Program-made: the position numbers and the translations under genes
The notes under the pieces: model-generated
What the model saw: the letters and a program-made list of their open reading frames with translations, nothing else
Database searches by the model: none
Told to the model about the DNA's origin: nothing
In this document: piece after piece, positions 23,439-25,358 of the stretch
Position numbering within the stretch: position 1 is the first letter of the stretch
How the letters are laid out: every line of letters begins with the position of its first letter
From: Escherichia phage anhysbys
Strand: one strand, 5' to 3'
DNA length: 64,000 nt
Sequence record: NC_052656.1

Positions 23439-23510
23439 GGCCCTGTAGCTCAATGGGAGAGCTGTCGGCTCATAACCGATAGGTAGCTGGATCGAAACCA
23501 GCCAGGGCCA
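23439..23510 (+). tRNA. tRNA-Met (anticodon CAT)
   Basis: hand-folded cloverleaf: acceptor GGCCCTG/CAGGGCC, anticodon loop CTCATAA, T-arm GCTGG-ATCGAAA-CCAGC, encoded CCA. Confidence 0.8.
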
Positions 23511-23515
23511 CCAAC

Positions 23516-23587
23516 GTCTTTATGGTGTAATGGATAGCACAGGAGTCTTCTAAACTCTTAGTCAAGGTTCGATTCCTTGTAAAGACA
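23516..23587 (+). tRNA. tRNA-Arg (anticodon TCT)
   Basis: acceptor GTCTTTA/TAAAGAC, anticodon loop CTTCTAA, T-arm CAAGG-TTCGATT-CCTTG, encoded CCA. Confidence 0.8.
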
Positions 23588-23592
23588 CCAGA

Positions 23593-23775
23593 ACATTTTA
23601 ACATGAATTAGCTCAAGTGATTTGAACCCACTACTGATCATGGTGGCAGAGAATGAGGCAAGTATGTCAGACATTATAAACAAAGGCCACGGTTATATTA
23701 GAAGACATAAATGCTCGAAGAGCACCGTTCGTTGAGAACGGGGGTTGGTGGAGTCACCATTCATGGTAAAATGTT
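23593..23775 (+). repeat. 17-bp inverted repeat (one mismatch) bracketing a 149-nt structured segment
   Basis: AACATTTTAACATGAAT (23593-23609) vs reverse complement of 23759-23775; interior has hairpin CCGTTC-GTTGA-GAACGG; no cloverleaf found. Confidence 0.55.
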
Positions 23776-23781
23776 TTAAAA

Positions 23782-23815
23782 ACTATTGACAACTAACATT
23801 ATTTTATGTTAGATT
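23782..23815 (+). promoter_or_regulatory. promoter with conserved ACTATTGACAA -35 element
   Basis: TTGACA at 23786-23791, -10-like TTAGAT/TAGATT 17-18 nt downstream; precedes tRNA-Ser. Confidence 0.5.
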
Positions 23816-23823
23816 ATAAGTAT

Positions 23824-23911
23824 GGAAGGGCAAATCGACGTGGCGACGAAAACGGTCTTGAAAACCGCCGAGCTTGAAAGAGCCTTGGGAGTTCGACTCT
23901 CCCTCCTTCCG
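23824..23911 (+). tRNA. tRNA-Ser (anticodon TGA), type II with long variable arm
   Basis: acceptor GGAAGGG/TCCTTCC, anticodon arm CGGTCTTGAAAACCG as in E. coli tRNA-Ser(UGA), T-arm GGGAG-TTCGACT-CTCCC, discriminator G, CCA; D-arm atypical. Confidence 0.65.
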
Positions 23912-23919
23912 CCAGATTA

Positions 23920-24002
23920 GGTAGATTGGTGAAATGGTAGCCACAACAGTTTGCTAAACTGTAGTCGGAAACGGCGTGTAGGTTCGAGTCCTACATCTAC
24001 CG
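23920..24002 (+). tRNA. tRNA-Ser (anticodon GCT), type II
   Basis: acceptor GGTAGAT/ATCTACC, anticodon arm ACAGT-TTGCTAA-ACTGT, T-arm GTAGG-TTCGAGT-CCTAC, CCA. Confidence 0.75.
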
Positions 24003-24135
24003 CCAAGTTCTTTTTAATATAGCTTACTTTAATAGAGTAAACTTTCGGCAGATGGCCTCCACCATCTTACCGATAACTCATAGTTAGTGGTGTGAACACT
24101 GGCTATTTTAAAAAGAATTTAAATATTAGTATTTA

Positions 24136-24220
24136 GGTGAGTTAATTCCGTAGGGGTAGCGGGGCAGACTGTAAATCTGTTATCATTGCGATTCGGGTGG
24201 TTCGACTCCATCACTCACCA
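24136..24220 (+). tRNA. tRNA-Tyr (anticodon GTA), type II
   Basis: acceptor GGTGAGT/ACTCACC, anticodon region CAGACTGTAAATCTG identical to E. coli tRNA-Tyr, T-loop TTCGACT, CCA. Confidence 0.8.
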
Positions 24221-24229
24221 CCAAATTAA

Positions 24230-24312
24230 GATGAGTTGGCTGAATGGTTTAAGCGGCGGACTGTTAATCCGTGTTCGAAAGAACGATATAGGTTCAAATC
24301 CTATACTCATCG
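24230..24312 (+). tRNA. tRNA-Asn (anticodon GTT) with atypical 15-nt variable arm
   Basis: acceptor GATGAGT/ACTCATC; anticodon arm GCGGA-CTGTTAA-TCCGT identical to E. coli tRNA-Asn; extra hairpin GTTC-GAAA-GAAC before T-arm ATAGG-TTCAAAT-CCTAT; CCA. Confidence 0.6.
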
Positions 24313-24322
24313 CCAGAATTAT

Positions 24323-24399
24323 GGACTTGTAGAGTTAAGGTAAACCCCCAGTCGCCAAGAGGCTTCTGGAATTGCAGGTATCGAATCCTGCCGAGTCCC
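24323..24399 (+). ncRNA. tRNA-like element / pseudo-tRNA (no canonical anticodon arm)
   Basis: acceptor-like pairing GGACTTG/CGAGTCC and T-arm-like GCAGG-TATCGAAT-CCTGC (8-nt loop), but central region is one long hairpin; no encoded CCA. Confidence 0.25.
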
Positions 24400-24405
24400 A
24401 GCTTT

Positions 24406-24477
24406 GCTCCTATAGTATAATGGCTATTACAACGGTTTTGTAATCCGTGGATCTCTGTTCGATTCAGAGTGGGAGCA
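24406..24477 (+). tRNA. tRNA-Thr (anticodon TGT)
   Basis: acceptor GCTCCTA/TGGGAGC, anticodon loop TTTGTAA (T-T at the stem base), T-arm CTCTG-TTCGATT-CAGAG, CCA. Confidence 0.75.
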
Positions 24478-24749
24478 CCAACACAACATTAAGGGCACTG
24501 TGATTGATCGTCGTATCCTGTGCACAAGGTCTGTTCGAAAGACAGTGTTCTTAGTATTGTGTTGATCACACAAAGAGTCACCTGAAACTTGACCGGAGTA
24601 GGGTTGGATGGGGCAAAAGAAGAAGCGGCTCTCCCATCGACAGCAACGAAGAATAATATTTGACTTTGGTTTTGTATTATTTTAAGTTAGCTTACCGAAC
24701 GTAGGGCTAGTCACCCAATGGGATACTCGTCACTGTCCCACTCAATAAA

Positions 24750-24783
24750 ACTATTGACAACCAATAGTAAAATGTAGTATAGT
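24750..24783 (+). promoter_or_regulatory. promoter with conserved ACTATTGACAA -35 element
   Basis: TTGACA at 24754-24759, TATAGT 18 nt downstream; precedes tRNA-Gly. Confidence 0.55.
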
Positions 24784-24794
24784 AAAGATGTAGG

Positions 24795-24865
24795 GCGTTC
24801 TTGGTGTAGCGGTAGCATTCCGTCCTTCCAAGTCGGCGGCACGAGTTCGATCCTCGTAGAACGCT
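24795..24865 (+). tRNA. tRNA-Gly (anticodon TCC)
   Basis: acceptor GCGTTCT/AGAACGC, anticodon loop CTTCCAA, discriminator T, T-arm ACGAG-TTCGATC-CTCGT, CCA. Confidence 0.75.
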
Positions 24866-24966
24866 CCAAATTATTTAATAAAGGGTTGCCAGAAAACTTT
24901 CTCTTTTACTCATGGTTTTCTCCTTCTCTCACACCTCTTCTGGTTGCCCTTCATTAAATGATTTAT

Positions 24967-25039
24967 TGGTTTGTAGTGTAGTCCGGTAGCACACGACACT
25001 TTGACTGTCGTAGGTTTGGTTCAAATCCAGACAGACCAG
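24967..25039 (+). tRNA. tRNA-Gln (anticodon TTG)
   Basis: acceptor TGGTTTG/CAGACCA, anticodon arm CGACA-CTTTGAC-TGTCG, T-loop TTCAAAT, discriminator G, CCA. Confidence 0.8.
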
Positions 25040-25047
25040 CCATATAA

Positions 25048-25121
25048 CGGAATTTAGCTCAGTTTGGTAGAGCATACGCTTTGGGAGCGTAGGGTCGCAG
25101 GTTCGAATCCTGCAATTCCGA
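25048..25121 (+). tRNA. tRNA-Pro (anticodon TGG)
   Basis: acceptor CGGAATT/AATTCCG, D-arm GCTCAGTTTGGTAGAGC, anticodon loop TTTGGGA, T-arm GCAGG-TTCGAAT-CCTGC, CCA. Confidence 0.85.
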
Positions 25122-25130
25122 CCAATCAAA

Positions 25131-25201
25131 TGTTTCGTAGTTCAATGGTAGAACCCACGACTGATAATCGTGAGACACAAGTTCGATTCTTGTCGAAACA
25201 A
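25131..25201 (+). tRNA. tRNA-Ile (anticodon GAT)
   Basis: acceptor TGTTTCG/CGAAACA, anticodon arm CACGA-CTGATAA-TCGTG, T-arm ACAAG-TTCGATT-CTTGT, CCA. Confidence 0.8.
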
Positions 25202-25206
25202 CCAGT

Positions 25207-25276
25207 TTCCCGTTAGACTTACAGGATAAGAGTTCCACAACTTATTGTGATGCTGGTTCGAATCCAGCACGGGATA
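25207..25276 (+). ncRNA. tRNA-like element with 4-nt anticodon-position loop (pseudo-tRNA or structured RNA)
   Basis: perfect T-arm GCTGG-TTCGAAT-CCAGC and 6/7 acceptor pairing, but anticodon-position hairpin is CACAA-CTTA-TTGTG (tetraloop); no encoded CCA. Confidence 0.25.
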
Positions 25277-25282
25277 CATAAT

Positions 25283-25358
25283 AGCGGGATAGAGGAGTCT
25301 GGTCGTCCTCGCCAGTTTCATATGCTGGAGATCATCGGTTCAAATCCGATTCCCGCCT
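25283..25358 (+). tRNA. tRNA-Met (anticodon CAT), second copy; could be initiator or Ile2 type
   Basis: acceptor AGCGGGA/TCCCGCC with A1-C72 mismatch, D-arm GAGG...CCTC, anticodon loop TTCATAT, T-arm ATCGG-TTCAAAT-CCGAT, CCA. Confidence 0.7.

Follow-up and report, generated by a model that had tools for sequence, protein, structure and literature searches.

In the genome of Escherichia phage anhysbys (sequence record NC_052656.1) we examined a cluster of 12 transfer RNA (tRNA) genes, all on the + strand at 23439–25361 of the window, by which we mean the whole 64-kb stretch of DNA that was analysed, out of a phage genome of roughly 150 kb. The window belongs to a Phapecoctavirus (phAPEC8-like, Stephanstirmvirinae), one of a genus of phages of E. 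coli, and ARAGORN placed no tRNA gene elsewhere in it. The cluster comprises the following genes:

23439–23513, + strand: tRNA predicted to be of the Ile2 type, anticodon CAU (ARAGORN; Rfam, 64.5 bits)
23516–23590, + strand: tRNA-Arg(UCU), reading AGA/AGG, anticodon loop as in argU (ARAGORN; Rfam, 66.3 bits)
23824–23914, + strand: tRNA-Ser(UGA), with a non-canonical D-arm, G73 and CCA (relaxed ARAGORN; ASO2A annotation)
23920–24005, + strand: tRNA-Ser(GCU), class II, G73 (ARAGORN; Rfam, 56.3 bits)
24136–24223, + strand: tRNA-Tyr(GUA), class II, A73, unusual D-arm region (Rfam, 39 bits)
24230–24315, + strand: tRNA-Asn(GUU), long variable arm, G73 (ARAGORN; Rfam, 62 bits)
24406–24480, + strand: tRNA-Thr(UGU) (ARAGORN; Rfam, 59.5 bits)
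24795–24868, + strand: tRNA-Gly(UCC) (ARAGORN; Rfam, 56.1 bits)
24967–25042, + strand: tRNA-Gln(UUG) (ARAGORN; Rfam, 54.9 bits)
25048–25124, + strand: tRNA-Pro(UGG) (ARAGORN; Rfam, 70.8 bits)
25131–25204, + strand: tRNA-Ile(GAU) (ARAGORN; Rfam, 72.2 bits)
25283–25361, + strand: initiator-like tRNA(CAU) (ARAGORN; Rfam, 50 bits)

ARAGORN at default settings found 10 of the 12 genes, and the Rfam tRNA model RF00005 matched 11 at 39–72 bits, above its gathering score of 29, the gain over ARAGORN being Tyr-GTA (24136–24220). Since the covariance-model E-values, calculated for the whole window, ranged from 1e-4 to 8e-14, chance can be excluded as their source. The twelfth gene, Ser-UGA, was supported by the annotation of Escherichia phage vB_EcoM_ASO2A (MZ726793; 98.7% identical), in which tRNAscan-SE annotated exactly the same 12 tRNA genes in the same order. 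The array of 12 genes and the anticodons given in a preliminary description of this DNA, made from the sequence alone, are thus borne out, as is its statement that all of the genes encode their CCA (12/12). Other details in it need adjustment: the spacers are, in order, 2, 233, 5, 130, 6, 90, 314, 98, 5, 6 and 78 nucleotides (nt), so that the shortest is the 2 nt between the Ile2-type and Arg genes rather than 5 nt, and the interval it gave (23439–25358) starts correctly but stops at the discriminator base of the last gene, whose CCA extends to 25361. No open reading frame (ORF) inside the cluster exceeds 66 residues and every one overlaps tRNAs, and the small coding sequences annotated there in phage WPEC4 look spurious. 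Matches in the region to RyhB, MicA, YrlA and other Rfam families fell far under their gathering scores and were disregarded.

The array as such is known and ordinary, because GenBank relatives in this genus already carry the cluster in deposited and annotated form. Escherichia phage dw-ec (OL739525) is 99.7% identical over the full length of the 2.5 kb around the array, and the other 29 Phapecoctavirus relatives listed have 97.8–99.3% identity at 100% coverage. The clusters of dw-ec and ASO2A have no difference of substance from that in the window; ASO2A also has the same terminator after its cluster, and differs by an insertion of roughly 90 nt between Gln and Pro (3346–3438 in ASO2A) that is not present in the window. 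Another relative, vB_EcoM_01, has two Pro tRNAs annotated. The GenBank records of the genus disagree on Ser-TGA, Tyr-GTA and the last CAT gene, which are absent, marked pseudo or named Met: the annotation of Mt1B1_P17 has 11 tRNA genes with Tyr-GTA and the last CAT gene marked pseudo, that of WPEC4 has 10 with Tyr included, and ASO2A labels the first CAT gene tRNA-Ile-CAT and the last tRNA-Met-CAT. More distantly, a Justusliebigvirus-like contig (L135), a 148-kb contig (L167), phage rV5 and Seunavirus have in common with the window a syntenic core of Ser-UGA, Ser-GCU, Tyr, Asn, Thr, Gly, Gln and Pro, followed by a CAT tRNA of 78–79 nt and Ile-GAU, and these arrays resemble it also in a long-arm Asn tRNA and in the codon rationale described below. 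The arrays of L135 and L167 have 15 and 23 genes, respectively, compared with 12 in the window; their extra genes include Lys-UUU, Leu, Phe, Val, Ala, Asp and Glu, and around Ile-GAU and the CAT tRNA their genes are ordered differently.

The first CAT tRNA had been listed as Met, an identity that its sequence contradicts. It has C4:G69 and C5:G68 in the acceptor stem and an anticodon loop (CUCAUAA) identical to that of E. coli ileX, which is also its best E. coli match (0.76 global identity). Those two pairs reportedly are the acceptor-stem determinants of TilS, a result attributed to Ikeuchi et al. in 2005. Because of the acceptor pairs, the loop, the ileX match and the tRNAscan-SE label Ile-CAT in ASO2A, this tRNA is on sequence criteria of the Ile2 type, a predicted lysidine substrate that would read AUA.

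For codon usage, 66 long window ORFs (17,345 codons) were compared with 42 annotated E. coli K-12 genes (14,748 codons), and a further host set of 30 ribosomal-protein and elongation-factor genes was used. GC content at third codon positions was 0.30 in the phage and 0.57 in E. coli. The preliminary description had proposed that the array fits an AT-rich genome and had named six codons as rare in many hosts, and indeed all six (AGA, UCA, ACA, GGA, CAA and CCA) exceeded their frequency in the K-12 genes, by 1.6- to 6.2-fold; per 1000 codons the values were, for example, 7.6 vs 1.2 for AGA, 30.3 vs 5.4 for ACA and 18.3 vs 6.0 for GGA. AUA, the codon read by a tRNA of the Ile2 type, was likewise 4.6-fold enriched (11.1 vs 2.4). 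The 11 codons with the strongest enrichment in the phage (in order AGA, ACA, AUA, CCU, AGG, GGA, ACU, AGU, UCU, AAU and UAU) were without exception readable by the array under standard wobble rules (11/11; hypergeometric p = 1e-5), and over the whole table readable codons were more enriched than the others (Mann-Whitney p = 0.0014). Since this held within A/U-ending codons alone (mean log2 ratio of 1.41 for readable codons vs 0.49 for the rest, p = 7e-5), the signal exceeds what AT-richness brings with it. At the anticodon level, among 40 E. coli anticodon species, the association was weaker (p = 0.014), with Arg-UCU ranking first (5.3x), Ile2 second (4.6x) and Thr-UGU fourth (2.3x). The bias toward A/U-ending and rare codons that had been ascribed to the array needs qualification in one respect: Ser-GCU, Tyr, Asn and Ile-GAU have G34 anticodons, with no Watson-Crick match to A-ending codons. 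The block of + strand genes lying downstream of the cluster used AUA, AGA, ACA and GGA more than the − strand block did (per 1000, AUA 13.0 vs 7.4, AGA 9.2 vs 3.9 and ACA 34.3 vs 21.5); the former, which begins with a terminase gene, is presumably late or structural. Two outcomes had been named in the preliminary description as refuting it, rejection of several genes by covariance models and a lack of enrichment for the matching codons; neither was observed, and its interpretation is largely right. The same codon argument has been published for the related phage rV5 (PMC3606486).

Three promoter-like sites and one terminator-like hairpin flank or interrupt the cluster:

23193–23229, + strand: promoter-like site P1, ATAACTATTGACAAA ... 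TAGGAT, TG-extended (motif copy at 23193–23207)
23779–23815, + strand: promoter-like site P2, AAAACTATTGACAAC ... TAGATT (motif copy at 23779–23793)
24747–24783, + strand: promoter-like site P3, AAAACTATTGACAAC ... TATAGT, matching 11/12 consensus positions (motif copy at 24747–24761)
25477–25503, + strand: intrinsic-terminator-like hairpin and T-run closing the cluster (ASO2A has a terminator at the corresponding position)

In all three sites an extended motif, A(A/T)AACTATTGACAA(C/A), precedes a −10-like hexamer, and with up to two mismatches the 15-mer AAAACTATTGACAAC occurs just three times in the window, each time in the tRNA region. This arrangement suggests three transcription units, predicted to comprise Ile2 and Arg; Ser, Ser, Tyr, Asn and Thr; and Gly, Gln, Pro, Ile and the last CAT tRNA.

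We consider it probable, though well short of certain, that the main role of this tRNA cluster of a virulent phAPEC8-like coliphage is codon supply, which is also the role best supported by the evidence. Host RNA polymerase would transcribe three polycistronic precursors from the promoter-like sites, which are of sigma-70 type, and host RNase P and 3'-end nucleases would free the tRNAs, some of them across spacers of only 2–6 nt. Host modification enzymes and aminoacyl-tRNA synthetases would then mature and charge them; in 8 of the 12 the anticodon loop is the same as that of the host isoacceptor (Ser-GCU, Thr, Gln and the last CAT tRNA differ), which fits such use of host modification and charging enzymes. 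TilS would turn C34 of the first tRNA into lysidine, giving AUA reading, and the set as a whole would add decoding capacity for codons that the AT-rich phage uses far more than E. coli does (AGA/AGG, AUA, ACA/ACU, GGA, UCA/UCU, CCA/CCU, CAA, AGU, UAU and AAU). Several points weigh against this reading. For Ile-GAU, the Met/fMet-like tRNA, Pro-UGG and Gln-UUG the summed ratios of the cognate codons are ≤1, so supply and demand alone are insufficient to explain these four, and the array lacks two tRNAs that this reading would lead one to expect, Leu-UAA (ratio 1.8) and Pro-GGG (2.0). Codon matching is correlative, and was measured on 64 kb of the phage genome against a reference of 42 genes from one E. 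coli strain. A general scan for promoter-like sites gave 8, against a shuffled expectation of 6.4; since this is no excess, only the shared extended motif is informative.

A different explanation, which we entertain tentatively, is that the tRNAs are kept mainly for surviving tRNA-targeting immunity (AriB of PARIS, PtuAB of retron-Eco7, or anticodon nucleases), by replacing host tRNAs that it cuts or depletes, with codon matching secondary. It is compatible with codon supply, and as a second role beside codon supply we likewise hold it possible but not probable. There are precedents in phage T5, where the Lys, Thr(UGU) and Asn(GUU) tRNAs jointly neutralise PARIS (PMC12409363) and tRNA-Tyr counters retron-Eco7 (PMC11555353), and the window cluster holds Thr(UGU), Asn(GUU) and Tyr(GUA). 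The tRNA-rich region of T5 is similar in having clustered tRNAs with encoded CCA, Thr(UGU) and Tyr included, and an Asn(GUU) that has an additional variable stem; it differs in belonging to an unrelated family (Demerecviridae) and in having about twice as many tRNAs, Lys-UUU among them. AriB cuts between positions 40 and 41, and an A41-to-C change inhibits its cleavage of tRNA-Lys (PMC12409363); the window tRNA-Thr(UGU) (24406–24480) has G29:C41 in place of the U29:A41 of E. coli thrU. In the Asn tRNA it is the shape of the body beside the 40/41 site that is altered, with an unaltered anticodon arm. Phage tRNAs have been hypothesized to differ from those of the host in their anticodon loops (PMC10264068), and the loops of Ser-GCU, Thr, Gln and the last CAT tRNA do so, but the other eight are identical to the host's. 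Lys(UUU), the tRNA that PrrC and PARIS chiefly attack, is missing from the cluster, although it is present in the related L135 array, and the strong codon-usage signal is not something that an anti-defence role predicts.

The embedded class II-shaped tRNA-Asn is the sole part of the cluster that merits follow-up. The preliminary description had listed Asn(GTT) without mention of its long variable arm. The gene (24230–24315) is 86 nt long, with a 15-nt variable region able to fold into GUUC-GAAA-GAAC (a 4-bp stem with a GAAA loop), and its body has a U8-G9 junction, a 3-bp D-stem, C11:G24 and G73, which together amount to a class II shape, whereas tRNA-Asn usually has a class I body with a variable loop of 4–5 nt, E. 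coli asnT encoding a 76-nt class I tRNA with a 5-nt variable loop. In contrast to the body, the anticodon arm (GCGGA-CUGUUAA-UCCGU) matches that of asnT exactly, and the identity elements of E. coli asparaginyl-tRNA synthetase, G34, U35, U36 and G73 (PMC9976931), are all present. Like class II Ser, Leu and Tyr tRNAs, the phage Asn has a long variable arm (about the size of that in leuW), a 3-bp D-stem after U8-G9, and C11:G24, and serT, tyrU and leuT are slightly closer to it in global identity than asnT is. It has G73 as in tRNA-Ser, and differs from tRNA-Ser in its GUU anticodon, in having A2:U71 rather than G2:C71, and in an arm shorter than those of the E. coli Ser tRNAs. A BLAST search with this tRNA against 5,426 E. 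coli genomes returned merely a 35-nt chance match in yobD, so no host gene has this shape.

Similar genes were common in other phages. Asn(GTT) genes of 80–86 nt with a variable stem were found in Epseptimavirus, Tequintavirus, Novosibvirus, Justusliebigvirus, Seunavirus, Moonvirus and a Klebsiella T4-like phage, so that the design is present in T5-, T4- and rV5-like phages; the T5-like homolog in SHSML-45 has a 3-bp variable stem, and Kuttervirus Maynard has a normal 75-nt Asn gene. A pattern scan of IMG/VR found at least 120 contigs with at least 84 distinct long-arm sequences, 81 of 84 with G73 (beside the window gene at 24230–24315, the design is that of our loci L004–L009, L011 and L097–L216). 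Stems in the variable region were longer than in shuffled sequences (3.53 vs 2.81 ± 0.07 bp) and comprised 48 different stems, mostly with GNRA loops. With 20 diverse copies RNAalifold predicted the variable stem, and at three of its four pairs there were compensatory double-sided changes in 7, 12 and 6 sequences. When viral contigs with this anticodon arm were sampled with no bias toward either length, the long form was present in 11 of the first 80, mostly contigs of ~100 kb or more. Among 185,579 bacterial and archaeal species (one genome each) there were 73 pattern matches, and several of the validated cellular cases lie within arrays of 7 to 36 tRNA genes. Verrucosispora and Micromonospora genomes (L029, L030 and L039), for example, have 32–36 tRNA genes per ~5–6 kb, among them an Asn(GTT) of 90 nt whose variable stem has 6 bp. 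The class II-shaped tRNA-Asn is a genuine feature, subject to selection, enriched in phages and rare in cells.

As to what the arm does, one speculative proposal, to which we give slightly less credence than to an anti-defence role of the cluster at large, is that this tRNA is a previously undescribed and largely virus-specific design whose arm was selected because it blocks nucleases of the anticodon stem such as AriB. The extra arm emerges next to positions 40–43, where, on this proposal, a change of sequence would cost Asn identity. T5 tRNA-Asn(GUU) works in vivo in PARIS rescue, in a study that is silent on its shape (PMC12409363). The phage Asn, one of the three PARIS-neutralising tRNAs of T5, has a class II shape in many phage families, and this peculiarity of structure is missing from the current discussion of phage tRNAs and tRNA-cutting defences. 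If the arm does protect, it would be an escape route other than the anticodon-loop mutations proposed so far. Bacterial class II tRNAs are listed as Ser, Leu, Tyr and Sec-type only (PMC7609411); if true, the design would break the textbook rule that in bacterial systems long arms occur only in these tRNAs. In the literature, tRNA reviews included, we found no description of a long-arm phage tRNA-Asn, which older T5 sequencing papers may nevertheless contain. Alternatively, the arm could give partial seryl identity in the T5- and T4-like versions; the identity elements of seryl-tRNA synthetase include a long variable arm, G73 and C11:G24 (PMC7609411, PMC9976931). The long-arm Asn tRNAs of T5- and T4-like phages have G1:C72, G2:C71, C11:G24 and G73, while most other viral copies have U1:A72 and C2:G71, like host tRNA-Asn. 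Work of Normanly and of Asahara is said to provide a further basis for the seryl elements, G2:C71 among them.

In phage or mobile-element arrays, other tRNAs that are normally class I also had long arms: Glu of 89 nt (L167, c4743–4831), Trp of 87 nt (L147, c4387–4473), Lys of 88–90 nt and Ile-UAU of 93 nt (L045, 4198–4287, 5454–5546 and 6902–6990, and L027, 1693–1780). Across our survey loci L097–L336 long forms made up 16/97 of Ile, 10/66 of Cys and 12/106 of Thr genes, and 80/181 of Leu genes were shorter than 81 nt.

Three of the 12 genes scored low enough (37.4 bits for Ser-UGA, against the tRNA-Sec model only; 39 bits for Tyr-GUA; 50 bits for the last CAT tRNA) to raise the question whether they are pseudogenes, the last two being marked so in Mt1B1_P17. 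Ser-UGA (23824–23914) is below every Rfam threshold, its sole match being to RF01852 (37.4 bits against a gathering score of 47), and ARAGORN recovered it and Tyr solely at a relaxed threshold. A tRNA-Sec has a UCA anticodon reading UGA and an 8/5 geometry of acceptor and T-stems. The UGA anticodon (reading UCN), the 7/5 geometry and the low score rule out that identity for Ser-UGA. The cluster also holds two clear tRNA-like remnants, each lying flush between two tRNAs:

24316–24405, + strand: tRNA-like leftover A (fold z = −2.0)
25205–25282, + strand: tRNA-like leftover B (fold z = −3.3)

Leftover A combines a 7-bp acceptor-like stem with a T-arm whose loop is 8 nt long, and leftover B has a 9-bp acceptor-like stem with one mismatch and a canonical T-arm (GCUGG-UUCGAAU-CCAGC); both are without an anticodon loop and CCA, and neither matched an Rfam tRNA model (A at E<10). 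When they were considered as remnants of Phe, Leu or Lys tRNAs, A gave a 32-nt match to L135 and B no match outside the genus. They are probably decayed tRNA genes, a reading that fits the gene turnover in related arrays (12, 15 and 23 genes), and possibly processing signals instead.

Such variation in gene content could be taken to extend decay to Ser-UGA, Tyr-GUA and the last CAT tRNA, but we think this unlikely. All three retain a complete acceptor stem, a T-arm, a 7-nt anticodon loop and an encoded CCA. The minimum free energy fold of Ser-UGA is a cloverleaf with a variable hairpin. The homologs of Ser-UGA and Tyr in the two diverged viral contigs L135 and L167 are called by ARAGORN at default settings and keep the same unusual D-arm features (the Tyr motif CCGUAGRGGYAGCGG is common to the window gene and its L167 homolog), and the last CAT tRNA is 92–100% conserved in Phapecoctavirus, Justusliebigvirus and related Klebsiella phages. 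At the level of gene prediction all 12 tRNA genes are accordingly confirmed as real, Ser-UGA being accepted on its annotation and homologs despite the sub-threshold score.

The last gene (25283–25361) is the second CAT tRNA. The A1-C72 mismatch and 19-nt D-arm attributed to it earlier are as described: its acceptor strands are AGCGGGA/UCCCGCC, leaving A1xC72 unpaired above G2:C71, C3:G70 and G4:C69, and its D-arm (4+11+4) has an 11-nt D-loop and a stem of GAGG/CCUC, giving A11:U24. A 1-72 mismatch and an R11:Y24 pair are elements for the formyltransferase (PMC9976931), and the best E. coli match is the initiator metZ (fMet; 0.71 global identity). In common with E. coli tRNA-fMet (metZ/W/V) it has the unpaired 1-72, G2:C71, C3:G70, G4:C69, G5:C68, G6:C67 and A11:U24. 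The E. coli tRNA, however, has C1xA72, A73, three anticodon-stem G:C pairs and the loop CUCAUAA, where the phage tRNA has A1xC72, U73, one such pair (A29:U41, G30:C40, U31.G39; 1/3 of the initiator pairs) and, with U38, the loop UUCAUAU. Because of the single G:C pair and U73 we call it initiator-like rather than an initiator, and it is most likely initiator-derived, as far as its sequence can tell. Of the earlier suggestion that it is either an initiator or a lysidine-dependent Ile2 tRNA, then, the first half is supported, in initiator-like form, by the acceptor stem and the 11:24 pair, and the second fails on the features expected of an Ile2 tRNA, C4:G69, C5:G68 and an A37-A38 loop. That it is an Ile2 tRNA is very improbable in spite of its CAU anticodon and the 4.6-fold enrichment of AUA, given its G4:C69, G5:C68, U38 and U73, the match to metZ, its homologs in Erwinia phage Omen (annotated tRNA-fMet) and L124 (with a GGG/CCC initiator stem) and the first CAT tRNA, which already fills the Ile2 type and so leaves the second to be something else. 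The identities of two CAT tRNAs that GenBank records of the genus label inconsistently (Met, Ile, pseudo or nothing) are thereby fixed, and the codon matching of the array holds even after correction for AT-richness.

The second CAT tRNA belongs to a phage-borne initiator-like family (window, 25283–25361; L135, 9129–9207; L167, c3586–3663; L124, c2590–2667; and L337–L339) with a 1-72 mismatch or weak pair and an xGCGGG acceptor stem, in which the three anticodon-stem G:C pairs are eroded to a varying degree and all enterobacterial-phage copies have U73. Positions 1 and 72 are U1xC72 in L135 and L124 (in the latter together with its GGG/CCC initiator anticodon stem), A1-U72 in L167 and Omen, and C1xU72 in Caulobacter phage Karma and Streptomyces phage Wakanda, whose homologs have a CGCGGGG acceptor strand.

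Beyond the last tRNA lies one further conserved feature:

25371–25440, + strand: conserved element of ~70 nt, 3' of the last tRNA (fold z = −2.3)

This element has 90% identity in the diverged contig L135, at the end of its array, and 80% in L167, just past the Ile(GAU) end of its array. At the larger scale, the GC skew changes sign near 22000, where gene orientation switches from the − strand (1–22000) to the + strand, and the tRNA cluster sits at this divergent junction, ahead of the + strand gene block that starts with terminase. The 23-gene array of L167 also contains a tRNA with a CTA anticodon (c9301–9375), which has the look of an amber suppressor and which ARAGORN labels Pyl.

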